Below, piece after piece: positions 10,073-64,000 of a stretch of DNA of 64,000 nucleotides. Under the pieces are notes generated by a model. That model saw only the letters and a list, made by a program, of their open reading frames with translations. It was not told the DNA's origin and searched no databases. The first letter of the stretch is position 1; each line of letters begins with the position of its first letter. The position numbers and the translations under genes are program-made. Origin of the DNA: Candidatus Omnitrophota bacterium (GTDB lineage: Bacteria; Omnitrophota; Gorgyraeia; Duberdicusellales; 4484-171); contig WJJJ01000021.1 of assembly GCA_014729775.1 (NCBI GenBank), positions 24,788 through 88,787 on the forward strand, read 5' to 3'.

Positions 10073-10082
10073 CGTACCACTC

Positions 10083-31078: not shown

Positions 31079-31089
31079 GATCGTAGGTA

Positions 31090-32055: not shown

Positions 32056-32102
32056 GATTCATGCTTATAAGAAGTAGGAAGCAAGATACAAGAAGTAAAG
32101 AA
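32056..32102. repeat. Purine-rich flank (inverted copy of the CTTAC-type element) on the left side of the IVS-protein insertion
   Basis: cttataagaagtaggaagcaagatacaagaagtaaag. Its reverse complement resembles 32508-32549. Confidence 0.5.
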
Positions 32103-32507
32103 TCAATCCCGTTTATCAAAATTTTGCCAACGTTTCATCAAAGAAAAAAGCATCGCTCCTATTTTATTATATTGGTCGAGGAAACTCTTATGCTCTTCCT
32201 CGGCTATATACAGACAATCCCTAGCAAAATCTAACCATACTTTAGTCTCTTCACACGATCCATTCGCATCATTAAGATGCCTGATAAAGACATTCTTATA
32301 TTTACGTTTTGCCCAACCTTCAGCAATATTCACTGGAATCGAACGCGTTGACCTCCTCAACTGATCAGTTAACGAATAAGTCTCTTCTTTAGGAAACCGC
32401 TTAGAAACTACAAAAATCTGTTTAGCGGCAAGAAAAGAAACCTGGTAGACGACTAAATCTTTATAAGTTGTAATAATTCTTTTTGTATTGAGCGTTGGCC
32501 CTCCCAC
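32103..32507 (-). CDS. Four-helix-bundle protein of the 23S rRNA-intervening-sequence protein family
   Basis: About 130 aa, all-helical, with a family-typical ...IAEGW...LDFARDCLYI... core. It has a GTG start. The gene is markedly AT-richer than its neighbours. Confidence 0.65.
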   Translation of the reverse strand: MGGPTLNTKRIITTYKDLVVYQVSFLAAKQIFVVSKRFPKEETYSLTDQLRRSTRSIPVNIAEGWAKRKYKNVFIRHLNDANGSCEETKVWLDFARDCLYIAEEEHKSFLDQYNKIGAMLFSLMKRWQNFDKRD

Positions 32508-32549
32508 CTTAATTGTATATCTTATTTCTTGCTTTTTGTTTCTTACTTC
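32508..32549. repeat. Polypyrimidine CTTAC-type element (copy 3) on the right flank of the IVS-protein insertion
   Basis: cttaattgtatatcttatttcttgctttttgtttcttacttcttatc. Confidence 0.5.
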
Positions 32550-34247: not shown

Positions 34248-34427
34248 ATGATACCTTCCTTTTTTATTCAATGAAACCATATTATACCTGATTGGATGGG
34301 GAAAATAAAGGGAATGGGTGAGCTCTTTTATCCGGGACGATAGAGCCTTCCCAGACGGCGCGCGTTAAGCCGATCCGGCTCCTGGGCTGGGACTTTTCGC
34401 TCCGCACGCAATATTCGCGCAGAACCC

Positions 34428-37400
34428 TCATCGTTTTCTTTTTCTGGATCTTCCGGACCTGCTTTTCCGCTTTTTCGCCGATAATGCCGGTTGATCCGGA
34501 CGGTCGCGTTGATGCCCTTTCTGCGCGGAAGAGAATCGCGCTCTCAGCGTCCGTTTCAAGAACAAACCGGCACAATACGCGCCGAAGAGTACCGCGCCTG
34601 TCTGCAGGACCAGAGCAAAGGTACTCTGAGGACGAACAGAGACGCCCAGACGTTCAAGCGCTCTGGCGACTTCTTCGCTGGCAGCGCCGTTATCCGGAGA
34701 ATAAAGGATCGCCTTCTCGTAATCGTTTCTGGATTTCTTTTTCTGACCGAGAGCGGCATAAGTCAGACTGCGATGAAAGTACAGCTGGGCATCTGCGGGC
34801 GCGATGGAAAGAGCTTGGTCAAACAGAGCAAGCGCGCGCCCGTAGTGTCCAAGCTCACGAAGGATAACAGCCCGGCACCGCAACCCTTCAAGTGAGCGCG
34901 CGTAAACGGTATCATATTCGCACGCCCGTTCATGATCAGCCAGCGCCGCTGGCAGGTCTTCCTCGACCAGATAATAGTAGCCGGCGCGAAGCACATAAGC
35001 CTGTGCTGAATAGGGATTCATCTCCAGCGCCTTATTGATATCGCTGATCGCCAGATCGTACCGCCCGGACTTACAGCGGACTTGAGCACGGTCAACCAGT
35101 ATCTGGTCATTAAGGGTGTCATGTTCAAGCGCGGCGTCGAAAAGCGCTATGGCCCGCTTGAAGGCGGACGGCCCTCCGTCCGCCAGGACCCGTTTCGCGT
35201 ATGACTGCAGACTCAGGCTCACCAGGGTCCTTTGACCCCCGAGACGAGCCATCCGGTAAAAACGCGCGAAGGGCGCATCATTACGCACCCGCAGATGATT
35301 TGCTTCCTGAAAAAAGAACTCCTCGAAATCAAAGTTCGCTTGAGCAACGCCGGTACCGGCCGCCGCATCGCAGTAGGAAAATCTTCGCGCTCCCTTTACG
35401 AGAACGGCGACATGGGAAATATCAAACGCCTCCTGATCGGCGCCGCCGGCCCTTCGCTGGGTATGTTCGTAGAGCTCTATTGGCACCGCTTTTATTTTAA
35501 GTGTTCGCAGAAGGTAATACAGCAAGATATTCATGCTTACACAATTACCGGTCTTCTCGAAGGCGAGCGCGCGCAGGCTGAACACACCAATGTCATAGCG
35601 GTATTTCTCCCTGATTGCTCCGGCGATCTCGCTGGCCGTCCTGAACACATCTTCTTCGACCCTATGCTGCCGTGACTGCGCCTGCCATATCCGCAGCATT
35701 GACCGGCCCTGCGCGTCTTTCCAGTCCGCCACGTCAGCCGCTATTCTCTCGGCCACTTCCCGGGGACGCCGGTCGCCGGCCGCCCGGCAATGCCAGTGAA
35801 TGCCGGCCTGCAGTGCCTGCGCCACAGATGTCTGCCCGTCACCCGCGGCAAAAGAAGACGGCGCCAACGCCAGCAGCGCCAACATTCCGGTTGTCGCCGA
35901 AAGGAAATACCTGCGCGAAGCCGTCTTCTCCCGCACACTGCCTCCCGGTGCTCCAGCGGGAGCGCGCATAGTTACGGGAGGGTGTACCGCCGAGGAAGCA
36001 GCAGGATTCACCTCGCAGTCGGCGGCCGGATAGACCATCATATAACGGTATCCCTGCAGTCGCAAAACCGATAATTCCCGAACCAGTGGCGTTCCGTGAT
36101 GTGAATCGATCACTTTCGCCTGCCAACGCCCGTTCCGGCATTTTAATCCCGGCACAAAATACGACTTATATGCCTGCGCAGCGATGAGCGCGGCATCTCC
36201 GTCCAGGACCGAACTGAACTGCTGCTGCCAAAACCGGTGATCGATCACCTCCCGTCCCAGAAGGATCTCCATTTTCCTCGGCCGGGCCAGCCGGCTCACC
36301 ACCGGCTGACTTATGCGGAGAAATCCATTCTCATCCAGGGTAAGATCACCCAATGCGTCCAACTCACACAGAATATCTTCTTCGGTTTCATTCCGGTATA
36401 CCTGCCGGTGCGGCAAAATCACCTGCCAGAAACTGAACGCGTGGATCAATGACCGCAGAAGACAGCCTTCAACCCGGGGATAATGGCTGTAAGGTTGGCC
36501 GGTGTACGTTTGTTTCGCCCATCCGTTGACCGGGGTGATATCATAATATTTTGTTTTGAAATCCACTGCCCCGGGAGCGCTTGCGGATTTCGATCCGCCT
36601 CCCTGTCCCTCTCGGAACAAATCTTTTCCCTGCGGGCGAAAGATGTGCGTGTCTTCCGGGAGACGAGTTTCTTTATTGAGATTTTGTTCGGACACACGCA
36701 CTATCCATTCGGGGATATCGGTTGTCACGTCTGTATCCGCCGCATTGATCCGCGGACGGCCTTGGAACAGAAAAGGCAAACGCAGCCCTGATACTAATTT
36801 TGGAGAAGCCGTGTACACCGTGCCGGCACACCCTTGCGCCGTGTACATAAATCCCTTCTGTAAGCGGATGACGGTACCCGGAGCAAGCACCTCCCGGCGG
36901 GAACGGCTCACCTGATAGGTATGATTTTCCAGATAGGTCACACTCACCGTATCCACCTGATTATACGTATGCGGATGCCGGATATTCAACGCGGGAGAAA
37001 CCGGTTCACTCAACCAGCGCGGGTCATCGGTCGAGAAAGGTTCCTGTTCGAAAGGGGTCACGTCCTCCGCGAAAAATTTACGGAATACATGAGCATTATG
37101 GATAAAAGGAGTGGATACCTTTACATTCCTGATACGCAGCATACGCGCCCATTTCACGATCCAGGACAACACGGCCTGACTGATCCCAAGATTAAGATAG
37201 CGGCGGTCCTGGGGAGTGCGCCAGACAGTACCGATAGGATAGTATTGCGTTATCTCCAGAGAACGATCAGCATACACCGCAGCCACTACCCGGCGCCGTC
37301 GTTCCGCTTCACCGTTAATCACGGTACGCGCGGTCAACGTCATCACCGGCCACTCAGAATTCCCGTACTTTGGAGTGGTCATGACAATTGACAAACCGAC

Positions 37401-40400
37401 TCCCGGACGCTCTCCCTCCGGTTCTACAAGAGGGATCTCATTATCCGTATCCGCCGGAGATGATGAAGCCTGATCCGTTACGGACCGCGGCGGGGCCTCT
37501 TGCCTTCTGACACGACGCAACCACGCATCAATCCAGTAGATCAGGATCCCCGACCAGAGAATTCCCATATTCGCAGCGATTAACACAATGTATTCAGGGA
37601 AAAACGCCCAGCCCAGAGACAGCCCGCTCGCCCAGAATACCCCGTTACCCGCGTAAAGACGGAGGAAATCCTTCACGGTTTCTTTAAATTCAATATCCGA
37701 CCGATCTTTCCGCACCAGATATTTATGGATGGCAAAATTCGCGGGCAGTCCCACTACCGCTGCGAAAAGCGTGATATCAAGAAACACCTTCCAGAACACG
37801 CCGGGAACAAACGCGGTAAGGAACCCGTACCATGCCCCGAATACGACTATTCCCACGTATAGTCCCCCGAACAGGCTCCAGCGGCCGATCGCCGGCCAGT
37901 CTATCCGTTCGCCCCTGACGGTCTGGTTCATGTACATACCGCACCCCCGGGACACCCCTCCGACCACCGTCTTGATCCCAAGCGCGGCATAAAACCCGGA
38001 CTGAACCGCCGCAATATACCAATGACCGAAAAAGACCGAAAGCAAAACCGCTACGGCCGGGATCCCGGCAAGCACCCCCCACCGGAGATAGCGGCGCATA
38101 CGCGCCGTGAACTGGGCCTGTCGAGTGAACTTCTCCTCGGCCGGACTCGAAACACTCCCGTTTCCACTGGAATGATGAGAATCGTTGACCTCCGCATTTC
38201 TCTCCCGCTGACGCTGCCGGGCACGATCCGTGATCGCCAGCGTCGCGCAGCGCTTAAGCAACGTCACGTCAGTGGCAAAACACAGTTCGGTACGATACCC
38301 GTTGCGCCCGTATAACAACCCGATAAGCCCGCCCTGCAGGTCGAACACCGGCGCTCCGCTAAATCCTTTTTCGGCCCCTTGCGCTTCGATAATCAGCATT
38401 GCCGTCGGTTCCACCCGCCGCGCCGTGCCCCGGATCAACTGGAAGTTGCGGTAATTCGCATGCGGCGCTCCCGGTATGACTACCGGTACCCCTTCATGCT
38501 GTGAGGCGATTGGAAACGTACGGCGGGAATAAGAGGCAAACCGCCGCAAAGGAGTAAAAACATTCTCGGGATAACTGGCTTTCCGTATCCGCAATAATCC
38601 TATGTCAGGATATTTCTGGCTGGCCGTGACTTCACCCCACAACCGCCCTCTGTCGTTTTTCACCAATAATCGAGAAAGTTCGGAATAAAGCACATGAGCG
38701 GCACTGGCAACATAGTAAAAATCGCTGTCTTCATCGAATATAAAACCCGTGCCTCCGCCGAACCATGTGGTCTCATCCTCTCCATGCGTATGTCTCACGA
38801 CAACAGGTTTGCGGACGACCACAAGATTCTCGGCGATGAGTCTCAGCCGTTCATCGGAAATATGATGAAGCTTTTGGGAACTATACGCGGACAATCTCTC
38901 ATAGAGAAAACCGTCGCCCCCCTGCCGACGGCCGCGGGTGCCGCGTTCCCTGCCCGCAGGAGAACCGGCCGCGGTGCCAAACTGTGCATTCGCCGGACGT
39001 CCGTTTGTCACCCGGTAAATATCGCACGTAGAGCAATAACTTACCATGCAATGGTACTTCTCCACCCCCATGACCGGATCCGGCACCGGTAACCCAAAAT
39101 GGTACCGGCCGCCGCTTCTCAATATCTCCTCTACTATATCCACAGGAACGCCGGAAACCGGATCACGCGCTACCTCTTCCCGATTCCACAATATCGCTAC
39201 GCCGCCGGGAAAAAGGAGATACGCAAGTCCCTTCGCCAAACGGCGCAACGAGATCTTGCCCACGTCGCCGTCCCAACATGACTCAAAGGTAGCGCCGCCC
39301 AACTTTCTCTCTTTCAAATATTCATAGACAAAAAACCGCAAATTTCGGCTTTCTGCCACAGCCTCCGGGATCTCGCCGGGCAGCACGTAAGGCATATTCC
39401 AGTTTACAGCGTCAAACCGCAATCCGGGAAACCGGGACTCGCCGTCCGGAGAAACGATATTGTCGGCGATCATCGCCTTGATCTCAAACCCGACGAGCTT
39501 CGCCGTATAGCGGGCGTTTGCGATCTCCATGGGATTGATACCGAGAGTATATTGTGTTTGTCCCGTTTTCAAATACATCAGCCAAAGCTCAAGCCCGGTC
39601 CCCGGACCGACCGTCAACACCCTGCTGCCGCGATGTATCCTTTTCTCCTCCCACAACATCCGATAATATTCCTGGTCCGCGTCGCTGTTTAACGACGGTG
39701 AATATACGGTGGGATATACGGGGGTAATAAGAGAATGCACCCGATCGGACTTTGCCTTATCAACGGCTCTGGTGTTCACCACCCACCCATTTCCGCCGAG
39801 CTGAAACAGACCATCCGTTTCCCACGCGCCGGTATCGCGGTCAATGCGGGCGACCACATACGGCAGCTGGCCATTACCCGGCCGTATCTCGCGGACCCCC
39901 TCCCGCAGCTTCGCGGTCGAGAAATCCTGAATAAATTCCGAATTACCCCGAGCTTCCTCCAGGAACGCTTCACAATGCTGAATTAAACCGGGATCATGAA
40001 GCTCCGGTATAGTAAAATAAAAATAACTCAGGTTCAGATATCTGGGATGTATTTCATCCAGTTTATCCATGCTTTGCAAAATATCCGAAGGAATCACCGG
40101 AAAAACCGCGACAAGCCGTCCTTGCTGATTATATAAAAGATCCACTTCTTCCAGAACGAATGCGTAAGGAACTACCAAAATATGCTTCAACACCTCTTGC
40201 CCCACACAGGCTCCCGCCGGCGAATCATGACTATCCGGCAGACGGACGCGCCGGTACCCGATCCCTTCGCGATGATGCGCCGCATTTCGCAACCCTAAGA
40301 AAAATAACAGGTCTGCCGCGACTGCCTCGCGAGCGGCGCTCTCCTGCGCACCGGATGAGTTGCGAAGATCGCTATCGGACTCCCCCGTTTCTCCCACATA

Positions 40401-43400
40401 ATACTCCTGACCGCAAAATCTTCGCTTAAACGGCGCGAATTTACTCATTCCTGCCGGCAGCAGACTCATTGATCCGAACCAAGGCGACCGATATGCGTGC
40501 CAGAGGCGGTAATTCTCCCGATTTGGTTTCAGCATCACCGCCCCGCTCTGTCCCCGTTTCCGGCGGCGCAGCACCACATTGAGACCCGGCCCGGATATCG
40601 ATACGTCTGTCACCTCGAACTGCTCCTCCAGCACGTCGAACGCCTTCGTGATTTTCAACCGGTTCCCGTCCAAATGATCGGCCCTCACCCCTCCGCGGAG
40701 GAACGTATACACCACACGCTCGACCGGCTCCTGCAGGGCATCCGCGACCGCGCGCACAAGACAATTCCTCCTAAGCTCAAACGGCACCCTTCCTGCTCCG
40801 CCGCGGGAAACGAGATACAATCCCGCTGAATACCGGATCTTTATGACAAAACGTCCCGTAGCGCGGCAGGCCGCGGCAAAAATTTGCCGTTCAGGCCTAT
40901 ATTCCTGAGGAACCGCGGCAATGCCCTGCTGAACCGCAATCGAGTATAACTGATGGAAAAACCCGCGATCGAACAATATCCTTTTTTGTTCGGCCTCGCG
41001 TAAAAGTTGCGCTAATTCCCGGGGATGATGAGAATAATATTCTTCACTGAAACAGCACGCCTTTTCATGTCCGGTACCAACCGCATAGCACGGACACACA
41101 CGGCCGGCCCCTGCCTCCCGGCGGCGCCTGTTTACCTCGCGATCCTGAGCAAGATGACGGAGCTCTAATTCTTCATGACGGTGCACATCGGCGAGTATTT
41201 CACTGCCGGGGTCCCTTCGAATCAATTCAAGCACTTGCCAGTGCACGGTGAAGAGAAGCCGTTTCACACTGTAATCAATCGAAACAAGCGGCGCGTATTT
41301 GTAAGGAACTACCCGCACCTCAATCGCTTCCGCCGGGGGCGCGTGGGGAAGAAGTCCTTCCAATAATTCTTTCACATATTCCTTGGCAAAATACCTGCCG
41401 AAAAACTGCCCTGGCAATGCTCCTTGAACACGGAAATCGCGGCGATCACTGTTTTTCGCGAATGTGACCGGCGGCTTCAAACTCCGCTTCCCGGCACACG
41501 CGGCGTAACAAATTCGTCCCGCGCGGGAAAAAGGCTCTCTTTCTGTGAGGGGACTGGAGCCGCCCCGGTGACGGAAAAGATCAGTGAACTGAAGGGTAGT
41601 GAGCTGATGCGGACGCTTTCCAAAATATTCGTATCCGGCGCTCTCCAGCACATAGCTATTTCGCGCAGTCCGGAAATGAGGAAGGCCCAACCGGCTCTTC
41701 GCGTGTGACCGCAGCACATATACCATCCCTCTGAGGTTATAAAACCGGTTTCCCCTGTCGGGAATATCAGAAGAAATGCTCACTGCGCCTGCCCCGCTTA
41801 TGGAAACAAACACATTACTTAACATTACGCCGTATGCGGCAAGGCCGCCGTACACGCCGTAATGAATCGCGCCGATATACACCGGCCGGTTCTCCCGCGG
41901 CATGATCTGCGTGACCCCGTCCTCGAGAGTACAAGTCTGGAACGCGATTCGGTCCGACAACTGCCGCGTACGCGGATGATGCGCGATATACCCGGAAACC
42001 GGCAGCCGATCCACGCCAACAAGATTACCGTTCAAAAATTCAAGCAGATTGGTTCTCCCACTGGATAACGCATCGGCAAAAAACCCCTCCACGTCGGGAC
42101 ACACGGGGCTGCGCAAAGTGAACATATCTTCCTTATCTTCCCGGTATGCTCCCGGAAACATAGATGAATGCCCGCAGCGCCGGAAAAAATTCGAAATCAA
42201 ATACTCAGTATGAAAAAACCTTGTTCGCGACCACGAATCTGGGTGAAGCGGATAAAACCGTTCCCGGCTCAAATAATTTTCCGCGGCCGCGATGATTTCC
42301 CGTCTGAGCGGGATATCCTGATTTTTTATTCTCATCAAAACCTGCAACGCGCTTCTCCGCACTCGAGCAGAAAACGGCCGCCTGGTGGCCGACAGCAGCG
42401 CTCTGATTACTTCCGGATTCATCCGGTCCTCATCACTTAAAGAAGTTAAAGCCATCCACACTTGATGAGAATGGCCCGGAACCGGATCCGTCAAAATTCG
42501 CACTGCTTTATGTTCGGGAACACGTCCATCCCGGGGAATAGCGCTGTCCGGATATATGGGACCGGGAGAGGAGCTGGTTCCGCTCTCTGACGATACCCGT
42601 TCAGGATTCAATCCTTTGCTTTCCGCGATCTCTCTCAAGGCCGACTCCGCCGGGCCCTTAATCTGGCGAATGCGTTCTCTGGTAACTCCAACTCTTTCTC
42701 CCGCCGCCTGCAGCGTCAGCACTTCTGCATCCTCCCCGATCGCAACCCGGATACGACTGATTACAGATAACTCGCATACCTGCAAATCACGCTCGGGATC
42801 CTTCCGGTTCCGGAATATCTCGCGCAAACGCGCCCGCAGCTCTTTAATAATCTCCCGGCCTAAGGCGTGGACACCCCGAACCTCTTCCTCAGTATCGGGT
42901 TTCGCCTCAAGGTCTTGCAGGACGGTATGACGGTCATCGAAATCCTGCCCTCCCCCGGGCTGATCCAATGAAACCGCGCCTCTGTGCCGGACCAGGTAAC
43001 TGTCGATTTGCTGCACAGGCACCCCGGTTACCTCGGAAATCTCTGCCGGGGACAACAGCCCGGTGGAAAGCTCTATATTATGCTCCCGGCACAGGTTTCT
43101 TAGTTTCCTGTCTTTTTCCTGCTGAGACGTAGGAGTCCGTACTATATGTTTCTGTCCCTGGATTTCCCGGGTAATCACTTGGCGGATCCACCAGCTCGCA
43201 TAGGTCGAAAATTTGTATCCGGTTTGGAATTCATAACGCGGAATTGCTCGGTATAAACCGATATTCCCCACACTGATCAATTCCATCAACGTAAACGGAT
43301 GACGAAGATACTTTTTTGCAAATTTTACTACGAGGCGGAGATTGGAATTCCATGCCTCGGTATGAGACTGCCTGTTCACCCGGCGTTCCTCGGTCCTGTT

Positions 43401-52400: not shown

Positions 52401-55400
52401 TAACCCCGCCCCCTTGTTCATGTACTTTATCGCCACCCGGATGGACTCGGTCATAAAAATAGGGGTATCGCTGCGAAAAGATAAGCGCCGCTGTGCTGGA
52501 TCGTATACCCCGCGGTAAAGAAAAGGAACCGAATCCTGCTCTTCCCCGTAATAAGTATTGAGCCGGCCGGAAAGAGCCCAGCATATCATCTGATGATATC
52601 CCGTCTGCAAAGCGTGATATCTGCTGTTCCAAAGCGGACGTATCTGATTGAGCTCCTGATAATCAGCACCCATAGTGGAAAGCACCTGCGCTATCTCTCC
52701 GGCATCACGGTTCCAGCGGTAAAAATATTGCATTACATAATTGAGCACTGCCGCGGTATTCGTATATTCTAAGCGGCTTATCAATCCGAATATCTCTAAC
52801 CGGCTCACCTCCCGCTGGAACGAGATTCCCAGCTGTTTTTCCCGCCCCCGGGACCACCGGCCGAATGCGTCTTCCTCTCCGGTTTGACCCTGGACGGCAG
52901 GCGAGCTGGACTGAAGTCTTTTTTTCTCGCTTGTAACCAGCTGCCTCCAGTACCTCGCCGGCGGCGCATGCTCAAAAAACCATGCCTCGGTAAGCACCCC
53001 GGGCTTCATCGGAAGTCCGGGACAATACCACACCTTGTCGCGCCGGCTCCAGCGGCTCTCCTGCCGCGGATTCTTGTAGATCACTTCTTCGCCGCCCTGC
53101 GCGATGCGGAATAAATGCGCTTTATGAAAACTGGTATGCAATCCTTCTCCCGCACTGCCCCCAATACCGATATTGACAAACGGCCGCAGCGCTTCTTCGA
53201 TAGAATAACGGTTGTCCGAAATATTCTTAAATCCCCCGCCGTTATCGAACGAAACAATGATCATCCGTCTATTCTCCTCTGAAACCGGCTCGACGAAACT
53301 CAAGTAAATCCCGTATTCGTTTACATGCTGATACAAATTCTCCAGGTTGCATTGGACAAAGCCTTGCGCGGTATCCCACGCCCCGAGTACCGAAGCGACA
53401 CCGCCATAGGTATCGTCGTCTTCGTAGCGAAACACCGCGTCGAACACATCCCTGCCCGCCCGGGAAGAGCCCAGTTTCATTCCTCGTTTCGAATAGACGA
53501 AGACCGATCTCCATCCTATCTCACGCAAACCGCGCATCGCCTTCTTGTAGGCGCGGATATTTACTTCAGGCGCGCCGGGCATAAATTGATGCGCGGCATC
53601 AAGCAGATTTCTGGACTGCGCATGGACAGCTCCTAACGGGCTGGACACCTGACTCACCCAGTACGAACCCCGGGCGGATCCGTGACCGGCAAGGTGTCCG
53701 TTATTGTCAGAAGCATACGAGCAACAGACATGGGGAAAAACTTCAAGTGCGAAGTGGTCCTTGAGCATACATATTGCCCCGCCCACGCACCCGGCTTTAT
53801 CGGACCACTCGGGTATAACCCGGCCGGAATCGCCAAACCCGGCCGTTTCTCCTCCTATGGAAACCGACCGTATTCCTAAATCTCTGAAGCCATCTATAAC
53901 CGGCTGCCAAAATTTTCGGCACTCCGCGAGTCCTCGAGACGGAAAGCGCTGCCGCTTCACCGCCGGAAGCGGAACGTCTTCGAAGGAATCAATATCCACA
54001 ATGACCGCCCGGGTTTTTATTCCGGACACTGCCGCGTAACTGCCCCCCAGCACAAACAGGACTCCAAAAGATTCCTCAAGCGCGTGAATCGTGTTCTCCA
54101 CGTATTTTTCCGCATGCGCGACTGCCGGACGATATTTCCACCGGCCGGATTTACGATCTAAATGCCACCGCCCTGCGTACCATCCCAATATATGCACGTA
54201 GAGAGAAACCCTTCCCCCCGCCTGCCTGATCAGCGACTCGAGTTTTTGCCGATGCGCACCGGTAGCGGCGTACCAGGGAACTCCCCGTTTCGAAAGAACC
54301 TCTTTTTTATCCGGATCCGGGAACGAATATCCTCCGCCGATCAAAGAATAATCCATTCCCGCCGGGCTTGATCCCGTGAAATCATCGACACGGGTAGTTT
54401 CCGTGATAAGTTCATCCAACAGGGCTCGGTCGTTCCCTTCCCTCTGCATCTCATCTGCCGCGCGCGATTGATAGTACGCAAATAACGACATCATCTTCCG
54501 CGCCGTATGGTACCCGGGAGAATCACTTCCTCCGGCGCTTTTGCGGACAGTGACCATATAATCTTCGAGTAAAATGCGGAACATAATACACAATGAAAAT
54601 ATGTCATCCGCCAACAGACAGAGACGGGAAGTCGCGGTAAAATCGTCCCCGCAGCGGGAAATCCTGTCTCCGCTGGTGAACAAGCGCTTGTAGAGACGGC
54701 GCCTCGCGCGGGCGACCGGATCTTGTGCACCAATCTTCGTCGTTGTATCATTATCAAAATACACGATCCGGGAATCTCCGGCTCCTCTTCCCTCACACAC
54801 GGACACGTCAAAAAATGAAATATCGCCCTGAATATACCCGTTTTGTGCATAAAGCGCACGATAGGAGGAAAACACGTCCAGAACGATCAACCCAATATTT
54901 TTCGCCGCGGCAATCCCGGAACCCAGCGGGTGAATCGAACGGGTGAAATAATCGACCAGCAATTCTCCATTTAATAATTCGAACACAAGCCCTGTACCAA
55001 ACCGGTCCGCGGACGAAAACTTCACCCGGCCGAAGTACCGGGGAAGGTGGTGCAATGAATCGTTGGCCGGATTAAGCTCAGAAAATATATTCTCCTGGGG
55101 CAAAAGCAGAGAATCCTGAACCGTTTTGCGCACGTCTGCTTCCACCTGCGGATCGGGAAGCTTACACACATAATGAGCCCCGGGGACTAATACTCCGTCC
55201 GCCGCTCCTTGGTATTTTGCTCTTACCACCGCTTTCCCATTTATTCGGCGAAATGTATCCTCCACCGCGAAATCCCGTTCTAACGTATAGAGACGAACCG
55301 GGCTGGAACCGCCGCTCCTCATCTCTTCTCTCAGCCGAGTGAATGCGGATACATGATCCAGATAGTTCTGGGTGTTGCTTTGGCCTTCACGGACCTTCGC

Positions 55401-58400
55401 GCGGAAAAAATCACCAAACGTACGGTATCCCGCCATACCGGCCAAGCCGTCAACGATCTCCATAAAAGGTATTATTCTGAAATACCCCTCCATCTCGTCG
55501 AACACCGCACAGAGCTCCCGGGCATACGTAAGAGACACATCGAGCACCCGGCCGGCATCCCTGCCCCGGTATTCCAGGCTGAATCCTGATTCCACCTTGT
55601 ATTTTCTAAGAACATCCACAACGCGGTTCACCAACGCTTCAACGCTTCGAAAATGATGATTTTCAGCCAGGAACGGATACTCCTGCTTTTTAAGATCAAC
55701 CTGCAGCGGTAAGCTGTTTATTGCCTGGAGACCGTCGGAAAAGAAATGGATCGTGAGCGCAAAAAACGCCGTCCACAGTAATGATTCACTCCGCGTTCCC
55801 CGGGTAAGCAGCTGCGGAGCGTGCGCGATAATTTCTTCTTTCTGGAATTGATCAAAAATCCCGGGGGCACCGACCGCACCCGTTTCGTCAAACAAGTTAT
55901 CCGCGATTTGTGTGATTTCATCGTGAACGGGAGAAGATACTGAAAGATCTTGGGAACTGCGCTTGACCTCCTGCAGATCACGAATTACCGCTCCCATATC
56001 CGGATACCGTTGTTGGCGCGGTTGAAGACAGCGCAAGGCAATAGCGTACGCCGCGCCAAAATTCTCGTCCGCGAGCTGCTCCTGCCGCTGCAGGGCGGCC
56101 CGGATCCGCAGCAAGGCGGCAACCGCGTTGTCCCGCATCATATATTCCAATATCTCCCGCGGCTCCAGAATGACGGCCAGCACCATCCCGAAACTGTACA
56201 CATCCCACTGCTCCGTAAACAGCCGGGTTGAAGCTTCTAACGCGCCGGTGCGTTTCGCTTCACGACGACCGAAGGCCCAAGGTTCATAGCTCTCGCAATA
56301 AATATCGGTATGGATGGTGCGCACGATTTCCGGAATGCGGCCGGAATTTTCCACCCAGTCGTAACGCAGCGGTACCGCGCTGTCCTGATCCACAAGGCAC
56401 ACCGTTTCCCGCAAATTTTCATCAAGCCGCATCCGGATATTTGTCGGTTTTAATTCCTTCACCAGAAGCCCCCGGCGGTGACACTTTTCTACCGCATCCG
56501 CGACCGCCAGCGCGAGCCGCAATTTATGCCTCTCATCACGAGCCAATTGAGGCACCCATCTTTCCATCGCCAGCAAATCGCCCAAATTCACGGAAGGAAC
56601 AAAATCCATGATCAGATACGGGAATTCCCTCCGCCAAAAACGGGGCGCGAGAATTTGTCCTCCTTTTAACTTACACCATCCCTTCCCGTAATAATGCGGG
56701 ATCACGCTCTCTTCGGTCAGAGTTTCGTAATGCCGGGACAGCCATATCACGTAATTAATAATCCGTCTGCGTTCTCTCAAAGAAAGCACATCATTCCGCG
56801 GTCCGTTACAATACACTTTCACCGCGTAGGGCCCATGCGCTTTATCTTTCGCGCTGACTTTATATACACGGGCGTAACTCCCTGCACCTACTATTTCCTG
56901 GGTACGCTGATCAAGGTCGTTCATTGTAACTCGCGGGCTGCCCGCATTATCTGATACGGGAGAGGACCCGCTCAGACGTCCAAGGCGCCGGACCGTATTA
57001 TCAAATATATGACCGATATGTAGGGTGAGCCCGGGGATCTTTAGTTCTTCCTGCACTTTTTCAACCGCCCGTTGTTTGGCTGTTTGCACCGCATGGGGAT
57101 CAAGCCTCTGTATCACAAACGCCTCTTTCAAATACCCGGGCACGATGGTCCTGAGAGTAAATAACTGTTCTATCTCAAGCTGACGCAGCGTCCTTTCATT
57201 CTGTATCTCCTCTTCCCATATCACACCTAACGGAAAATCAGATAATAGAGACACCACCACCGACCGCACACCGCCGTAAGCCCCAAACATCTTGATTGCG
57301 CCCTCTCTGTGAGAATCCCATTGCGCGTATTCCTCCAATACGCCTGCCGTATCTGCATGTATCACCGCTCGGATGCCGGCAGCATCTGTCCTGTACCGAG
57401 GGCTCATCACGATCGCCCCCCTTACTCGCGGGGTCTCTTGTAACACCGCATCAATAAAGCGTTCCAGAACACCTGAATCATCTTCGGTCAGCAATGACGG
57501 GATATCTTTCCTTGAAAAAACGCGCGGCCGGGCGTACTGAACCGTCTCCTTTCCGGACATCAGCGCGCTTTTCTTTTTGGAAAAAAACAGTGCGCGGATA
57601 TGCAAAGGTGCCGCGTACGCGCTGCTCATGTGGCCGCGCTCATGAAGTAATGTATCCAACCGCGGGTAATGACCTATGCCGCGAATGACAATCACGTAAT
57701 CTCCGGGATACGCACCAAGATAGGTATCAATGTCGTCCGCCAACGCTTCGTCTCTCAATCGAAGCGCATCCTGGTTTTGCCATCCGGAAAGGTGCCGTTT
57801 CCAAAAATTCACCGCTTCCATATCATCTAAATCGATTTCTCTTTCTTTAAGAAGCGTCAGCAGATTGCGCAGCTGACCCAACGTAAGCGCCAGATCCGGA
57901 GCTTCCTCCTCGATACGGATAGTACGCCCGCGTGAGATCTGTGCCCACAGATACCGGTTACGGGCAAGCGCGTAAGGAGTAAACGAGTATACCGGTTCTT
58001 CGCGGGGCCGTTCTTCGGCGTTGAGCACCTCACGCAGACCCTGCAGATGATTTGAGGTCTCCCGGTCGATGACCGCCATAATGTTTCGGGCAACCTGCTC
58101 ATCTACGGTATCTTGTCGATCCAGTTGGCGCAGGGCTTCTCTGAATAGTGCGGCGTCAAGCTTCTCTACATAGGTATATCCCCATTCAAGGAAAAACGCC
58201 ACCCGCCGTTTTTCTCGTTCCGCACGCGCAAGTACCGTTTCGGCCGCGGAGACCCTGAGGTCAAAGTCAAATCCCTGGGCATGATACCCGTAAAGAGAAA
58301 ACACCCGTGTCTGTCCGGTGATCGAACTTCTAAACCGTGCAAGCATCGGGTCGGCGGCCGGTCCATTGTGTGAAAGCACCGCATCTTCGCCGAATACATC

Positions 58401-61400
58401 CGCGGGAAAGAATCCGCTCATCATCCCGCTCAACATCAAAGATACGAATACTCGCCTGTCCGTTGACACCGCTGAAGATGCCCGGAAAGGAAAATATGGC
58501 CGCGGTTTGGTATATACCGGCTGCAGCAGGCGAGACGGCCCCACCAGCCACGGAGAGGTAACCGCACTCAGTCCGTGCTGCAACCGGTGAAAATATTCTA
58601 ATAAAGGCGAGCTGCTTTGCGGAGCATCGCCATCGCGTAAATTTTTTATTTCTTGCCGTAACGCTCTTAATTCGTCGGCGATATCATCAAAGACCTCTTC
58701 CGCCTGACGCTCACCGCTGTCCAGCGCGATGAACAATTCTTCTAGCGCATCTATACGACCCTGCAGGAAACTCGCGCTTCTTTCCGGAATACGCGGCGAC
58801 ACCGCGGACCGGGTGTGTATCTCATTTTCCCGTTGCGCTAACTGAGCGGAGAGGCCGGCGAGCCGGACTCCCTCAGCCTTGATATCCCGGGCGCGTTCTT
58901 CGAGTTTTCTCTGTTCAGCGGCAAGCGTCCGCTCGCGCAAAGATAATACGTCTTCCTGCCGCTTACGCCCCGCCGCCCAGTCGGCGCGCGTCTGTTCAAT
59001 CTGTCTCTTACGCGCGTCCAATGCCGCCTGTTGTTCAGCCAGGACACGGCGGTCTGAATCAATCCTGCCGCGCTCTTCTTGAATCCACTCACCTGCCTGT
59101 TCCTGTTCGTCCTCAAACCGCCCCCGGGCGGTCTCCAGCCTTGCCTTTTGACGCTGAAGTATCCGTTCCCAGCGTGATAGTCTTATTTCCTTGCTTTCCG
59201 CTTCCTGTTTCCTCCCGGCTAATTTTTGTTCCCGGACGGCTACGGCACGTTCTTTCTCATCGAGTTTTCGCTGTTGACGCGTGAAACGCTGTTCCCATTC
59301 TCTCAGAGATGCGTCCTTTTCCTCCTGTTCCTGCCGCGCCTGTAGTTTCTGCTCATCCAATCGTTCCTGTTCCTGGGCGATATTTCGCCGCTGCTGCGCG
59401 CACTGTTCTTGGATCTTCTTCAGCTCGGCACGGGCTCTGTCGATCTTTTCCCGCAGCCGGACAAGTTCACGTTCAGCCTCATCGGCCTCTCTTACACGCT
59501 CACCCATCTCCCGACGCTGACGTTCAAGGATCTGCTGTTGCCGCGCGAGGTCCGCTTCCCGCCGCGTGAGCTCTTCTTCCCGCACAGCGATCTGTTCCCG
59601 GGCTTCATCGACGGACTGTTGCTGGTATTTGGTCAGTGCGCACTGCGCACGCATCCAGAACATTCGCAGACGAACTACGCCTTTTTGGAATACCGGTTTT
59701 ACCCGGGAGGGCCGCTGCCGCGCCCGCAGTGCAGCCCGACGTTGTTTTTTCTTCTCTTTTCTGTTCCGTTTTCGCGCCGCTCGCCTCTGCTCCCGTAACC
59801 CGCCCCTCTGCCGCAGAGACGGCGCATCATTACTTTCTTCTTCGGTATCCGGTACGATCTCGGCACGCCGGTTCCAAAACAGCCCGTATGAGAGAATGAT
59901 GACCGCTGCCGAAGCAAACACCCGCAGGACGATGGAATACCCGGCCTCATCATAAGCCGGATTGATCCCTACATAATACGTAATGAACACCACCGCCGAT
60001 CCGGCCAACGCGGCGATCCAAAAAGGATGAGGCCATCCGGGAGCATGCACGGAGGGAACTTCATCCCGGTTGCCTTTCTCCCCGGATCTGCGCGGACGGG
60101 CCGGGGAAGATACCGGCATGCCCGACATATCAGGACCCGCTTCATTCCTCCCGCTCGGCCCGGAGATTGCCGCCGACGACGAAGATTGTGCCGTCAGTAA
60201 ATGCCGGTAGTCATCCAATTCCGAAAAGGGAAGCACTCCCGGGATTTCCTCAACCGGTGTCATCGCGCAATCCATCCACCCCATCATAAGGCTCAGGTAG
60301 CGGAGAGAAATATCCCGAGAAAGAAGGGTGTAGTGTTCTTTTTTCAATCCCAGTAAAAGCAGCGTTTCATACGGTTTTTTCTTGTGGGGGAACACAAAGA
60401 AATCACGCTCGACGACAGGGCGGGCGGCATTGGTGAGATTGTAGCGGCGCTCATGGGCAGAAACATCAACTATTTCAACCCCTTGTTCCTCAAGAAACCG
60501 CCTGTATTCGGCATTTTTTTGCGCTTCGAGCTCTCCCCGGTAGAGAGGATCGGAGAGAATCGCCGGCTTCATATTCTGCCGGACATGAGCCGGCACGTAC
60601 AGCAGCACTCCATCGATATGCCCGTTTTCGACAAGGAATTCATACGGGTACGAGTCCCCTTCAAAAGAAACGGGCACCTGCGCGCTTATCCAGCCCGCGG
60701 GGAACCGGTATGTCTCAAGACGCTCATATCCTTCTTTGGTTCTCAAATAAGAACGCAGCTGATTCACCGCTTCCGCTGATACTGAATCGGAAAAAATGAC
60801 AAACGGCGTCAGCCCTACCCCTGAAACGGCTGCGCCTTCCGCAATGAGATCTTCTTCAGGGGACGAATCCTGCGCGCCGGAACGGAACCGGGACACTCCC
60901 GTAAGATAACGGTACGGACGTTGCGGAATGAGCGGAAGCCATAACCGGGAATCTTTAAACCATACAGTCCGGTCTTCCCACGGCAGATGTAATGAGAAAA
61001 CGTGACGGGGATGTCCGCTCACCGAGAGACGGGAAACAAAACGTGAAACACCGTCCAGTTCACTGTTAATGTCCCTTGCGCCTAAATCAAGGAAACTTCC
61101 CGAAAAATCGACCGCTTTTGAAGCGAGTTTACCCGGCACAAAGTGCTTCTGCCCGGAGCCGGAAAAATACTCAAGAACTCCTTCTGTGCGCCACCGGCCG
61201 CTTTCCTCCCCCATTATCCGCGAGGCGCGCCGGGTACCCGCAGGAGTCTGGAGTTCGCGCACAAACTCGGCGACCCCGCGCATCTGCTGTGCCAGATATA
61301 TTTCCCGCTCTCCTAATCCCGCGAGGATCTCTTCGTCAGAAGGAGCCGCCCTGCCCTGATGACGACGCACCTGCGCCCTTGCGAACGCATCCTCCGCTTC

Positions 61401-64000
61401 ACGCACGCGTGCGACCACCGCCTGTTCCCGGCCGTTATAAAAGATCTGCGTGGCGACGTTCATAAGCACCTGCTCATCGGCAAGCTGCGCCCCGAAATCT
61501 GCCGCTCCTTCAATAGTGGATTTGACCATATCGATCAGATTTTCGTACCTTTCAACATTCAAGCCTATTCCGAGTCCCGGATCCGCAACCTTGCGACCTT
61601 CGCTACGTGCCGCAAGGATATCTTCGGACACATAAAGATCAAAAGGAGTATCCCTCGATACTTCCACGAAGAGGTATTCATCCGCCGCTAACCGAGTGGA
61701 CTCGATATGCCTCGAAGGAGAAGAACTGCTCCCCGGAGAACCGTTCACTCCGTATGCGAAACCCTCAGCCGTCCGGACCGGACCGACAGCCGTGAAATTT
61801 TCCGGGAGATTGAGACCGGTTCCCGCCGTGATCCCGGCGGGAACCGCAGAGGAAACCGGTGACGATACGGTATTTTGCGCTGAGAGAATACGGCGTGTGC
61901 CCGCACTTCCGGAACCGTCCGGGGAAAAGGAGAACGCGGCCCAGGAATTCGGCGGCAAGCTTATCCTGATATTCCCTTCCCCAGATTCCAGAGTAACATC
62001 ATCGCGGGAACAGAATGCGAAGTTATCCGTATTCGGCGCAGGGTAACCACGGTGAGAAAATGAGGAACTTAATGCCTCCGGATCAATAACCGCCTCTTCC
62101 GTATGCGCTCCCCGGTGGTTTATGACGGCCACACCTATCTCGTCCTGATACACACGCACCAACGGAACAAGGGAAGAGCGGTGCAAAGATTCCGGTTTCT
62201 TCAGATGCAGAGCGGAAAAATCTCCCCGGCGGAACACCGGACGGGAAATAAACTTAATCAGAGACTCAAATTCCCGGTCTGCTGCTTCCGGTTCGGCAAT
62301 TACGTCGGGATACCGGTACCGGTAAATGCCCGCATCGGGAGATTTCATCGAGATATGACAGATTCCTTCTGGATGGTTTTGTGTGGCAGTCAGCGGATAT
62401 CCCATGCCGAACAGCTGACGCAGGGTCACCAGCACATAGCCCGGCAGAGCAAAGCTTAACAGAGAAGCGCCTAGCGCGTACTCGCCGAATCCCCGGGGAT
62501 CACGGAAAGGCTCTTCATCATGGTTCTCCGTAAAATGCAGACCGAGGTCAAGATATCCGCGCGGCGCGCGGTAAAAAATATAGTCCCGCACCGCAGGCGC
62601 GCCTTGACCTTTCACAATATCGTACAGCCGTTTATCATAGGGAATGATCCCTGCACGCTGGAAAAATCCGGTGCGGCCGTCCCACGGCACATGCCATTTG
62701 TCGCCCGCTTCATAACTTTCGGCAAACGCGAGCATACCGCTCCCGGCGATTTCATCCATCACCTCTTCCCAGAACTCATGCGGCATGCGCTCCTCAAACT
62801 CCTTCCACGATAATCCCAGCGGATATCCCCAGGTCGCCCAGAATTGCAGACGAAGCGCGTAAAACGCGAGGTCGGCGCGGAATCCTCCGCCGCAGGTAAG
62901 TCTGCGGATATTTCCGGAAATCACATTCTTCATGTACCGGCGCGCCGACGGCAAAAGATAATCTACCTGTGCCAGGTTAGGCATATGGGCTTCTCCCGGT
63001 CCGTACCAGGCATTCTTCACTATCGTACGGTATGCGTTCGGATATACATAATGACGACTTTTGCGAAAGAAGGCACGCGCATACAGATTTTTCTTTCTAA
63101 GACTATCCAAAAATTCCCGGCGTGTCATATGCGGCCAGAACCTGTCGAGCCGCCGGGCCACTGTTAACGCGTCATCAACCGAATCCCACTGCATCGCGAC
63201 CCCGCCGCGCTGCACGATAAGCGAATCAGCGGCTACGTGATTGACGACAAAATCAAGCAGAGTGCGCATACCATACCGCTCCCGCAGCCTGCGCGCGGAG
63301 TTCATGAATTCTTTTTCTGATCCCAGACAAGTATCCAGCGTATAATCGTACACATCATAGGCTGACGCCCACCGAAAAAGAGTTTCATGGTCTGTCCTTT
63401 GCCAATGACGCATCATCCGCGCGGAAAGAGGACTCTTGCGCCACGCGCCCTTAATCCAGACCACCCTTATTCCCAGCCCCGCGATCCATTCCCAGAATTC
63501 TTCCGGAACGTTGCCTATCGTTCCGTAGGTAGCGGACAACGCGCGGGCGTCGATCTCCAGCACAACGGAAGTATCCGCCGGCGAACTCCCCTTCCCGAAT
63601 ACGATACTCTCGACCGTGTTTTTCTGCTCATTGACTTCCTCAACAGCATGTAAAAACTCTTCTCCTTTCATTTCCCTGTTACGTAAGAATGCGGTCATAC
63701 ACATATGGGGCCGAGTATGCTTCGGATCCATAATACTGACACTGATAACGCCTTCCTCAAGAGAAAACACGACGTCGCTCGAAATACCGGCATTATCCAC
63801 TCTTCGGTAGGAAAGGACCTCCATGTCAGGGTAAAGTTCCAGCGGTGACAGAATCAGCCCGTTTCTCTTTCTTGTTTTACTCACATCCACCCCGAATCCG
63901 GAAAAAACTGCGTATTTTTTGTGTATCCATCTTAAAACACGCTGAGCCTGCTCTCCGATCATTTCTCCCTGCGGACGGCGTATAGAAGCAATATCCAAAG
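34428..64000 (-). CDS. Giant multidomain protein, at least 9,856 aa, 5'-truncated by the window edge (the ORF is still open at 63998-64000)
   Basis: A single stop-free reading frame of 29.57 kb, which cannot arise by chance at this GC content. Six residue positions checked directly against the nucleotides match the translation. It has many recognisable domains (see the sub-features), a stop TGA at 34428-34430, and a C-terminus of ...[14 protein letters not shown]. Confidence 0.9.
   Translation of the reverse strand, partial: [9856 protein letters not shown]
34431..34622 (-). other. Giant protein: C-terminal TM helix plus a polybasic KR tail
   Basis: [21 protein letters not shown] followed by ...[17 protein letters not shown] and the stop. 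Confidence 0.5.
34629..35201 (-). other. Giant protein: TPR repeat region (residues ~9600-9790)
   Basis: At least 4 TPR-like 34-aa units (e.g. [50 protein letters not shown]). Confidence 0.6.
35319..35681 (-). other. Giant protein: transglutaminase-like cysteine protease core (residues ~9440-9560)
   Basis: Cys motif [19 protein letters not shown] (verified on the nucleotides) with a downstream His (DISHVAVLV) and Asp (SYCD). Confidence 0.55.
35841..35936 (-). other. Giant protein: twin-arginine (Tat)-like signal motif embedded internally (residues ~9355-9386)
   Basis: [28 protein letters not shown]. An in-frame ATG (M9344) lies at 35967-35969 but has no obvious SD. Confidence 0.3.
37515..38093 (-). 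other. Giant protein: cluster of about 6-7 predicted TM helices (residues ~8636-8828)
   Basis: Successive about 20-aa hydrophobic runs ([99 protein letters not shown]). Confidence 0.55.
38259..38801 (-). other. Giant protein: trypsin-like (S1/DegP-type) serine protease domain (residues ~8400-8580)
   Basis: His (TGFIFDE...VASAAHVL), Asp (YPDIGLLRI) and Ser ([17 protein letters not shown]) triad motifs are present in the canonical order. Confidence 0.65.
39189..39671 (-). other. Giant protein: class I SAM-dependent methyltransferase-like domain (residues ~8110-8270)
   Basis: Motif I [13 protein letters not shown] was verified on the nucleotides. A second, weaker MTase-like motif ([16 protein letters not shown]) lies at about residue 5900. 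Confidence 0.5.
42624..43646 (-). other. Giant protein: complete sigma-70 family module, regions 1.2, 2, 3 and 4 (residues ~6785-7125)
   Basis: Region 1.2 ([19 protein letters not shown]), region 2 ([41 protein letters not shown]), region 3 (HIVRTP...) and region 4 HTH ([31 protein letters not shown]). Region 2 was verified on the nucleotides at about 43209. Confidence 0.8.
44394..44756 (-). other. Giant protein: GHKL/HATPase_c-like ATPase module no. 2 (residues ~6415-6535), lying about 250 aa N-terminal of the sigma module
   Basis: N-box ([12 protein letters not shown]), G1 ([10 protein letters not shown]) and G2 (GTGLGT) are present. The start was verified on the nucleotides. Confidence 0.55.
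46764..47201 (-). other. Giant protein: degenerate Fic/Doc-like motif region (residues ~5600-5745)
   Basis: [25 protein letters not shown] resembles HPFx(D/E)GNGRxxR, but the catalytic His position is Gln/Leu. Confidence 0.25.
47649..48821 (-). other. Giant protein: GT4/GT-B glycosyltransferase domain (residues ~5060-5450)
   Basis: The N-half ([29 protein letters not shown]) and the C-half EX7E region ([30 protein letters not shown]...ETGLLVE) were verified on the nucleotides. Confidence 0.75.
49119..49451 (-). other. Giant protein: Pol-beta-superfamily nucleotidyltransferase-like motif (residues ~4850-4960)
   Basis: hG[GS]-x9-DhDh pattern: [21 protein letters not shown]. Confidence 0.4.
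50439..50528 (-). other. Giant protein: Lys-rich histone-H1-like tract (residues ~4491-4520)
   Basis: [30 protein letters not shown], encoded by an AAA/AAG-rich run. Confidence 0.6.
50823..50900 (-). other. Giant protein: helix-turn-helix (XRE/Cro-like) motif (residues ~4367-4392)
   Basis: [24 protein letters not shown], verified on the nucleotides. Confidence 0.45.
51594..51986 (-). other. Giant protein: GHKL/HATPase_c-like ATPase module no. 1 (residues ~4005-4135)
   Basis: N-box ([11 protein letters not shown]), G1-like (RIENDNN) and G2 box ([13 protein letters not shown]) are present. Confidence 0.5.
56049..56921 (-). other. Giant protein: Ser/Thr protein-kinase-like domain (residues ~2360-2650)
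   Basis: Gly-rich loop ([12 protein letters not shown]), beta3 Lys (YAVKVY), catalytic-loop-like [17 protein letters not shown] with E in place of the HRD Asp, and DQD in the DFG position. Confidence 0.55.
58809..59636 (-). other. Giant protein: long coiled-coil segment (residues ~1455-1730)
   Basis: About 280 aa dominated by E/R/Q/K/A/L with heptad character (e.g. [55 protein letters not shown]). Confidence 0.65.
59694..60029 (-). other. Giant protein: two predicted TM helices (residues ~1324-1375) followed by a polybasic K/R stretch (~1398-1435)
   Basis: Hydrophobic runs [20 protein letters not shown] and [22 protein letters not shown], followed by [25 protein letters not shown]. Confidence 0.5.
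62319..63551 (-). other. Giant protein domain: GH13 (alpha-amylase family) catalytic domain, residues ~150-560
   Basis: Conserved regions I (LLDFVVNHV), II ([11 protein letters not shown]), III (EEVMDEIAG...AESYE) and IV ([10 protein letters not shown]) are present. FTENHD was verified on the nucleotides at 62517-62534. Confidence 0.7.

Follow-up and report, generated by a model that had tools for sequence, protein, structure and literature searches.

Omnitrophota commonly carry giant genes, with 10,000 to 147,000 codons. The gene analysed here is of this kind and lies on the minus strand of a 64,000-nucleotide stretch of Candidatus Omnitrophota contig WJJJ01000021.1 (that whole stretch is "the window" below); the element in question is a short motif, Ser-Ser-Pro (SSP), which recurs along the encoded protein. 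The reading frame is uninterrupted up to the window edge, which gives 9,856 residues inside the window. West-Roberts et al. (2023, bioRxiv 10.1101/2023.11.21.568195) described Omnitrophota giant proteins, with an 'Archaeovorin' class, and asked whether the products are cleaved; they speculated on C39 or S8 domains, but stated that the cleavage points are unknown and that structural analysis was blocked for that reason. Nielsen and Lui (2026, bioRxiv 10.64898/2026.06.07.730766) reported 916 proteins of at least 10,000 residues, including 'multi-enzyme metabolic clusters'. A recurring motif between units is described in neither paper, where the words SSP, linker and polyprotein do not occur and 'motif' appears only in a cited title, and the literature that we searched contained no pairing of polyprotein with Omnitrophota and no account of punctuation marks. 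Like those giant proteins, the window protein is a very long open reading frame (ORF) tiled with unrelated enzyme domains (glycosyltransferase group 1, HATPase_c, glycoside hydrolase, peptidase, TPR) and transmembrane (TM) helices, and is mostly orphan; unlike them, its candidate protease is of the S1 type, against the C39 or S8 type considered previously. The giant-protein class and the polyprotein principle are known, and the punctuation marks between units appear to be undescribed.

Viral polyproteins are cut by an embedded chymotrypsin-fold protease, such as picornavirus 3C, flavivirus NS3 or potyvirus NIa. The window protein resembles them in that unrelated units are joined in one long chain, the junctions have a short lineage-specific motif and a protease is encoded within, but its gene is chromosomal, beside Opp, LysRS (lysyl-tRNA synthetase) and Lol genes, its units are metabolic or regulatory, and its cleavage is something that we infer. 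In prohormones and fungal KEX2-type precursors, dibasic sites between units direct a dedicated serine protease; there too a short motif is repeated between functional units, although these systems are eukaryotic, belong to the secretory pathway and contain peptide units rather than whole enzymes. Among bacterial proteins of several thousand residues, MARTX and large clostridial toxins also carry units between unstructured segments, and their effectors are released by a cysteine protease domain that cuts after Leu in those inter-effector segments (PMC2900308). There, however, a single P1 Leu is read by a C80 cysteine protease activated by inositol hexakisphosphate, whereas the mark described here is 4-5 residues or longer and the units are not toxin effectors. 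Pfam finds neither a C80 cysteine protease domain nor RTX-type repeats in any segment of the giant protein.

SSP is the top-enriched tripeptide of the whole giant protein. It occurs 23 times where composition predicts 2.2 (Poisson P = 4e-16) and a first-order Markov model 6.4, and the maximum over 5,000 shuffles is 10. Permuted orders stay near background (SPS 3, PSS 2), which shows that order, and not just composition, matters. In the remaining 33 ORFs of the window (11,155 residues), SSP occurs twice against 1.5 expected. The original prediction, which had listed these copies against about 3 expected, proved exact in all 23 coordinates on recount, and the excess that it claimed survived the shuffle comparison that it had proposed. 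Ten copies extend to SSPA, as it had stated. Aligned, the sites have V (7), S (7), G (6) or A (2) at position -1, then S-S-P, then A (10), V (4), L (3) or G (2) at +1; position -2 is hydrophobic in none of the 23, and there is little signal farther away. The description 'preceded by G or S' thus fits 13 of the 23 sites, but V is as frequent as either. AGY and TCN codons are mixed at both serines, the information at third positions amounts to 0.06-0.38 bits, and the codons used for the motif follow gene-wide usage (p = 0.98, 0.37 and 0.74). Since the synonymous positions are free, conservation in the window gene is at the amino-acid level only, in keeping with the earlier view of a protein-level signal and not a DNA repeat.

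The sites are given here with window coordinates, strand and residue number in the giant protein.

63579-63587, minus: SSP at residue 138 (GKGSSPADT), 5 residues ahead of the first strand of the GH13-like module
61857-61865, minus: SSP at 712, 21 residues past the end of the GH13 fold, in a linker with a predicted local distance difference test score (pLDDT) below 50
61716-61724, minus: SSP at 759, in the low-confidence linker shared with SSP712
60858-60866, minus: SSP at 1045
60102-60110, minus: SSP at 1297, 30 residues ahead of two predicted TM helices (1327-1370)
58605-58613, minus: SSP at 1796
56958-56966, minus: SSP at 2345, 22 residues ahead of the protein kinase match
55929-55937, minus: SSP at 2688, 13 residues past the kinase match
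55299-55307, minus: SSP at 2898
54363-54371, minus: SSP at 3210
53637-53645, minus: SSP at 3452
52899-52907, minus: SSP at 3698
50196-50204, minus: SSP at 4599
49527-49535, minus: SSP at 4822, end of the first 223-residue tandem copy
48858-48866, minus: SSP at 5045, end of the second 223-residue copy and ahead of the GT4 unit
47298-47306, minus: SSP at 5565
46629-46637, minus: SSP at 5788
45723-45731, minus: SSP at 6090
44283-44291, minus: SSP at 6570, 30 residues past the HATPase_c match
42564-42572, minus: SSP at 7143, 21 residues past sigma region 4
41550-41558, minus: SSP at 7481
38142-38150, minus: SSP at 8617, 56 residues past the protease match, opening the 4-TM unit
37455-37463, minus: SSP at 8846, closing the 4-TM unit

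Between these sites lie about 24 units with a median of 307 residues, the size of ordinary proteins. Pfam covers ~14% of the chain, and several unrelated families tile it with none dominant: alpha-amylase (weak), Pkinase, Glycos_transf_1, HATPase_c, Sigma70 r2-r4, Trypsin_2, TPR and Transglut_core (weak). A hydropathy scan, which is a crude method, gives ~7 strong TM helix candidates in regions 1327-1370, 8640-8822 and 9796-9814. The giant ORF and its recognizable units are as follows.

34428-64000, minus: giant ORF of at least 9,856 residues, an Omnitrophota-type multi-enzyme giant protein; stop codon at 34428-34430, N-terminus past the window edge
61926-63566, minus: GH13 (alpha-amylase-like) module, residues 145-691; AlphaFold fold, with a weak Pfam alpha-amylase match at 170-378
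55974-56900, minus: protein-kinase-like unit, residues 2367-2675; Pfam Pkinase match
47793-48257, minus: glycosyltransferase group 1 (GT4) match, residues 5248-5402; Pfam, within the unit 5048-5567
44379-44741, minus: HATPase_c (GHKL) match, residues 6420-6540; Pfam
42633-43349, minus: sigma-70 regions 2-4, residues 6884-7122; Pfam matches to regions 2, 3 and 4
38316-38753, minus: S1 (Trypsin_2) serine protease domain, residues 8416-8561; Pfam
37464-38141, minus: 229-residue unit with four predicted TM helices (residues 8640-8822); hydropathy scan
35451-35660, minus: weak transglutaminase-core match, residues 9447-9516; Pfam
residues 9613-9774, minus: TPR match; Pfam

None of the 23 sites falls inside a Pfam-matched stretch of the giant protein, and the 12 residues on each side of them are richer in disorder-promoting residues (0.558 vs 0.482, p = 0.0006). 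An AlphaFold model of residues 118-790 (13-sequence alignment, pLDDT 78) contains a complete GH13 fold at residues 145-691, for which Foldseek against the PDB gives alpha-amylases as best matches (E ~1e-18); SSP138, SSP712 and SSP759 all lie in segments of pLDDT below 50 just beyond this fold. Single-sequence AlphaFold of residues 2300-3499 was uninformative (pLDDT 34.5). Distances from the edges of Pfam matches to the nearest site showed no significant effect, because many Pfam matches span only part of a domain. The original prediction had placed copies before the kinase and GT4 units and after the HATPase, sigma, protease and TM-cluster units, and Pfam coordinates together with the hydropathy scan bear out each of these placements. 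Its more general claim, that the copies stand at domain boundaries and not inside folded domains, agrees with the count in Pfam matches, with the GH13 model and its low-pLDDT linkers, and with homologues marked at equal borders (below).

Divergence between units leaves the motif in place. Residues 4602-5047 (48858-50195, minus) form an adjacent pair of diverged 223-residue tandem duplicates (local alignment z ~5.4), which share 'EYYFGD' and 'GS..YL' stretches and are barely alignable, yet each ends in SSP. A third unit of 223 residues (5568-5790) is unrelated to the pair; the threefold 223-residue spacing was accordingly rejected as a repeat and amounts to one diverged tandem pair plus one coincidence. 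Self-BLASTP detects no internal repeats in the giant protein. The longest SSP-free units contain SSA at residue 3940 (52179-52187, minus, DVSSSAVIS) and at residue 9335 (35994-36002, minus, PAASSAVHP), the latter ~110 residues ahead of the transglutaminase-like core, and the two may be variants of the mark that divide these units further.

Relatives, labelled P0001 etc. for proteins and L002 etc. for loci, were seen mainly for the GH13-like module, those close to it being partial sequences of giant multi-enzyme proteins; extra relatives came from a profile search of 1.84 billion representatives and from a metagenome scan that yielded 11 loci. Used as queries, residues 2689-3698 and 7146-9600 found no homologue among 5.8 billion proteins, and a scan of the genome contigs for relatives returned one unrelated GT4 match and nothing else. 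Four of the first five relatives (P0001-P0005) are annotated as Candidatus Omnitrophota or Omnitrophica and P0004 is without a name; several found later are also annotated as Candidatus Omnitrophota.

In 14 of the 15 embedded copies of the GH13-like module, the conserved start 'I(I/V)EIDARAL' is preceded by SS at a distance of at most 25 residues, and in most copies a second mark stands directly past the last strand. The flanking modules vary, being hexokinase and phosphofructokinase in P0002 and PCMT methyltransferase and phosphoribosyl pyrophosphate (PRPP) synthase in P0004, and the closest homologue (50% identity) has only the GH13-like module in common with the window protein. The neighbours vary from protein to protein, so that modules are reshuffled and the mark keeps its place at the border. 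The hexokinase of P0002 (119-557) is flanked by SSA104 and SSA565, and the PCMT of P0004 (1691-1892) by SSSP1673 and SSSP1895. Whole enzymes are bracketed within 3-30 residues: the kinase in the window protein, and hexokinase, phosphofructokinase, PCMT, PRK, GNAT, HATPase, sigma-70 and an AAA+ activator in homologues. Neither the kinase nor the GT4 module recurs in the SSP-type relatives examined. P0007 (L003 2239-3981) is a stand-alone 580-residue GH13-like gene, both ends of which coincide with mark positions; it adjoins a GH77 4-alpha-glucanotransferase gene, and this neighbour suggests a role for the GH13-like module in alpha-glucan metabolism.

When the same tripeptide enrichment test was run on each long relative, the motif at the borders was found to differ by lineage.

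P0008, 7,695 residues: SSP 16 vs 1.1 expected; mark [A/V]SSP[I/V/L]
P0004, 2,632 residues: SSP 9 vs 0.7 expected; mark SSP
P0005, 2,573 residues: SSP 9 vs 0.6 expected; mark SSP
P0002, 2,267 residues: SSA 8 vs 0.9 expected; mark ASS[SA]
L009, 5,510 residues: SSS 14 vs 1.7 and SSA 12 vs 2.1 expected; mark ASS[SA]
P0013, 4,134 residues: SSS 13 vs 1.7 expected; mark ASSS[V/I]
P0015, 1,800 residues: SSS 9 vs 1.4 expected; mark SSS
P0027 (complete gene on a 143-kb contig, L002 10001-33511), 7,836 residues: GAR 17 vs 3.0 expected; mark GAR[L/M]A
P0073, 5,885 residues: 8 copies; mark GAR[L/M][A/S/Q]
P0122, 4,376 residues: GTR 13 vs 1.4 expected; mark GTRL[A/S]
L010, 4,366 residues: CFF 7 vs 0.11 expected; mark xAGCFFGLPMLATT, six copies

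The search for the motif in other giant genes, which the original prediction had suggested, thus found SSP itself in P0008, P0004 and P0005, but other marks or none elsewhere. The lineage-specific marks, SSP[IVLA], ASS[SA], GAR[LM]A, GTRL[AS] and the hydrophobic AGCFFGLPMLATT, stand at equal module borders. They bracket Pfam units for an acyltransferase, the GH13-like module, HEAT repeats and sigma-70 in P0027; the GH13-like module and HATPase_c in P0122, where the HATPase_c match stops 31 residues before the mark; PPDK_N, PRK and GNAT in P0013; and GT5, nucleotidyltransferase, HAD, PRPP synthase and TPR in P0008. In L010 an AAA+ sigma-54 activator stops 5 residues before the mark. For nine proteins pooled, 0 of 117 sites fall in Pfam-matched stretches where 19.1 are expected, and none of 20,000 permutations gave fewer than 6. 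One exception to border placement is the SSA at residue 1946 of P0002, which lies inside the GH13-like module and outside the narrow Pfam match. Border marks are the property of a whole giant-protein class rather than of one gene, and the class, going by the annotations of the homologues, is most likely that of Omnitrophota.

At the DNA level the lineages are not alike. Synonymous positions of the L010 mark are free, as in the window protein. The codons of GAR[LM]A in P0027 are unusually uniform, GGC GCC CGG ATG/CTG GCG (GGC 11/14, CGG 11/14; p <= 0.002 vs gene-wide usage), and P0008 has a milder bias, AGT at the first serine. The uniform P0027 mark DNA contains a GGCGCC palindrome; the SSP marks of the window gene are not so uniform. 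Two nucleotide-level explanations were rejected: GAR[LM]A as an internal ribosome-binding site plus start codon, as the DNA, GGCGCCCGG..., does not resemble a Shine-Dalgarno sequence and CTC is among the Leu codons; and a common frame-shifted DNA core of SSPA and GARLA, as the SSP codons are heterogeneous. In L010 (ORF nt 2-13099), the six inter-unit copies of the 13-residue hydrophobic xAGCFFGLPMLATT fall within residues 411-1852, and the G/CF core of this mark (G|CF) resembles a Hedgehog or intein N-terminal junction. A Hint/intein junction was rejected, no Hint or intein family being found in L010 by Pfam.

We now turn to what these marks may be. An ordered motif of 4-13 residues which occurs only between units, is kept amid divergence, is replaced wholesale in other lineages and has no DNA conservation in the window gene looks like a recognition site for a co-evolving macromolecule, and we are highly confident that SSP is a selected border mark read by something. 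That the reader is a sequence-specific endopeptidase, and the giant protein consequently a polyprotein cut at the marks, is the likeliest of the mechanisms considered, at odds that we judge about even. A processing site seems the most natural reading because the units include proteins that are normally free or oligomeric (sigma factor, hexokinase, phosphofructokinase). How a tethered sigma-70 factor such as the embedded one (residues 6884-7122) works is puzzling unless it is released; P0027, an unrelated giant protein, likewise carries a sigma-70 factor (L002, residues 5207-5435). SSP punctuation divides an Omnitrophota-type giant chain into ~24 autonomous units, comprising a GH13 enzyme, a kinase, a GT4 enzyme, a GHKL ATPase, a sigma-70 factor, an S1 protease, a 4-TM unit, a transglutaminase/TPR unit and many orphans. 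Each mark would be the recognition site of the endopeptidase, and the chain would be cut within short disordered linkers to give separate proteins.

A candidate reader is encoded in the chain itself. The S1 domain matches Trypsin_2 (E = 8e-11) and has all of the catalytic His (SAAHV), Asp (DIGLL) and Ser (GFSGAP); its nearest solved relatives by sequence are SplF, SplD and SplE of Staphylococcus aureus (E = 3.5e-6). Spl proteases, of family S1B, have narrow specificity and read several subsites: SplD recognises R-(Y/W)-(P/L)-(T/L/I/V)*S, and SplF favours a long aliphatic P1 (PMC7926377). By analogy, the Pro/Leu at P2 and aliphatic P1 taken by SplD may be compared with S-S-P-[A/V/L]. The embedded Spl-like protease is a candidate reader of the marks and would probably read S-S-P as P4-P2 and A/V/L as P1. 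Spl proteases differ in being small secreted virulence factors rather than modules of giant chains, and since their similarity to the embedded domain is low (~30 bits) their specificity is not transferable. All mark classes share three mostly small residues plus a hydrophobic one (SSP-[AVIL], SSS-[VI], GAR-[LM], GTR-L, AGC-F), a pattern that fits a P4-P1 site with hydrophobic P1, although where the scissile bond lies can only be guessed. The transglutaminase-like core is a possible second peptidase, with a possible Cys-His-Asp set (GNC / SHVAV / YCDAA) at about residues 9480-9550, running past the C-terminal end of the transglutaminase-core match.

Several points weigh against cleavage by such an enzyme. 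By Pfam, a protease is absent from the complete 7,836-residue P0027 and from the 7,695 residues of P0008, so that in many cases the reader would need to work in trans; the S1 catalytic-serine motif is found only in the window protein among the long relatives. No mark was detected in L004, L005, L007, P0019, P0020, P0095, P0011 or P0025. The codon biases may point to a nucleotide-level role, or to recent spread of the mark, in the P0027 and P0008 lineages. Finally, Nielsen and Lui (2026) view these proteins as single membrane-anchored chains.

That intact-chain view is the basis of an alternative in which the marks are uncut structural joints, hinges or 'insulator' sequences that prevent misfolding between units, and the giant protein acts as one chain. 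It accounts for sites in short linkers with disorder-promoting flanks and low-pLDDT segments, for the use of Ser and Pro, which are common in linkers, and for relatives that do without a mark. A generic hinge, however, needs no fixed order (SSP 23, SPS 3, PSS 2), and neither the strict retention of SSP while its flanks randomise nor its replacement by chemically very different motifs (GAR[LM]A, the hydrophobic 13-mer of L010) is explained by it; we regard it as rather unlikely. Compared with low-complexity Ser/Pro/Thr linkers of the cellulase type, the marks have a fixed order, a core of 4-5 residues and only a mild disorder bias in their flanks. The plain linker role named by the original prediction therefore keeps its placement, but it cannot explain the order, the 4-5-residue length or the wholesale replacement. 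A docking site for a non-proteolytic partner, such as a chaperone or a factor for secretion or insertion, or for a pause between units during co-translational folding, would share with a cleavage site the ordered motif, its lineage-specific versions and its border placement. Against it, a protease is actually encoded in the window protein, we know of no partner that reads such motifs, and nothing that GAR[LM]A and SSP have in common is known to us as a cause of ribosome stalling, which makes docking improbable.

The remaining explanations are less probable again. Cassette assembly could leave recombination handles or insertion scars as DNA-level joints between shuffled modules, and the shuffling among relatives with marks remaining at borders, the sharing of the GH13-like module alone with the closest homologue and the codon-uniform marks of P0027 would all suit this. 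The free synonymous positions in the window protein and L010 and the mixing of AGY and TCN at the serines leave no DNA sequence conserved, whereas the amino acids are retained through that much divergence, so selection acts on the protein and shuffling joints are a decidedly improbable explanation. Modification of the marks is suggested in that S-P is a classic context for proline-directed kinases and both a kinase-like and a GT4 domain sit on the same chain, so that the embedded kinase could phosphorylate the sites or the embedded GT4 could O-glycosylate them. But Ser and Thr are both missing from GAR[LM]A and AGCFFG, which means that hydroxyl modification is not the common function, and the SSP-type relatives examined share neither the kinase nor the GT4; we consider modification very improbable, and the O-glycosylation or attachment role raised by the original prediction is disfavoured as a general one. 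An artefact of chance, or of composition in a protein rich in Ser and Pro, could draw on the mild enrichment of the dipeptides (SS 73 vs 48 expected, SP 60 vs 32 expected). It is refuted by the shuffles (maximum 10), and 23 copies against 2.2 from composition or 6.4 from the Markov model, permutations at background and the enrichment in independent homologues reduce its probability to practically nil. Among the roles initially proposed, polyprotein maturation best fits an ordered, lineage-specific motif placed between units on a chain with an intact S1 triad, and glycosylation loses most support; maturation would still be a conclusion drawn from sequence patterns.

Other features of the chain and its surroundings were noted. 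Residues ~7498-7696 (41000-41510, minus), the N-terminal part of the protease-ending unit, match segments of P0095 (E = 4e-12) and P0019, and form the only module besides the GH13-like one that is common to other giant proteins. KKK is the second most enriched tripeptide of the giant protein (11 vs 0.5 expected), much of it from a lysine-rich tract, SKKKTVKKKKAKKEAVSKKTTRKKKP, at residues 4493-4516 (50450-50521, minus). The C-terminal end of the chain (34431-34613, minus, residues 9796-9856) consists of a predicted TM helix (9796-9814) followed by a strongly basic tail, ...KKRKSRSGRSRKRKR. Downstream of the giant gene (22317-34280, minus) lie ordinary chromosomal genes, which include an Opp-type ABC transporter (SBP_bac_5, two permeases, two ATPases), lysyl-tRNA synthetase, a LolCDE-like ABC pair, a class IV aminotransferase and a McsB-type ATP:guanido phosphotransferase. 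Over the whole window (1-64000), GC skew is negative all along, the minus strand holds nearly all genes, and no Rfam family reaches its gathering score.

A short, searchable mark between units the size of whole proteins makes the question of one chain or a cut chain testable. The marks predict termini to seek in existing proteomes, suggest peptide substrates for the embedded protease, and offer natural cut points for structure prediction and for annotating the extensive orphan stretches; the way in which marks differ from lineage to lineage provides a handle on the co-evolution of protease and site. Even without cleavage, they define the building units of giant proteins. If cleavage is true, dozens of proteins would be expressed in fixed 1:1 amounts without operon signals. 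Tentatively, and with somewhat less assurance than we give to cleavage itself, we suggest that the multi-enzyme giant genes of Omnitrophota may be bacterial polyproteins, whose operon-sized sets of enzymes, kinases, sigma factors and membrane units would be made as a single chain and then released by dedicated proteases at co-evolving, lineage-specific marks. If such a class exists, it would mean that a cellular organism uses a virus-like strategy of expression, and the marks would be the first map of its mature products.

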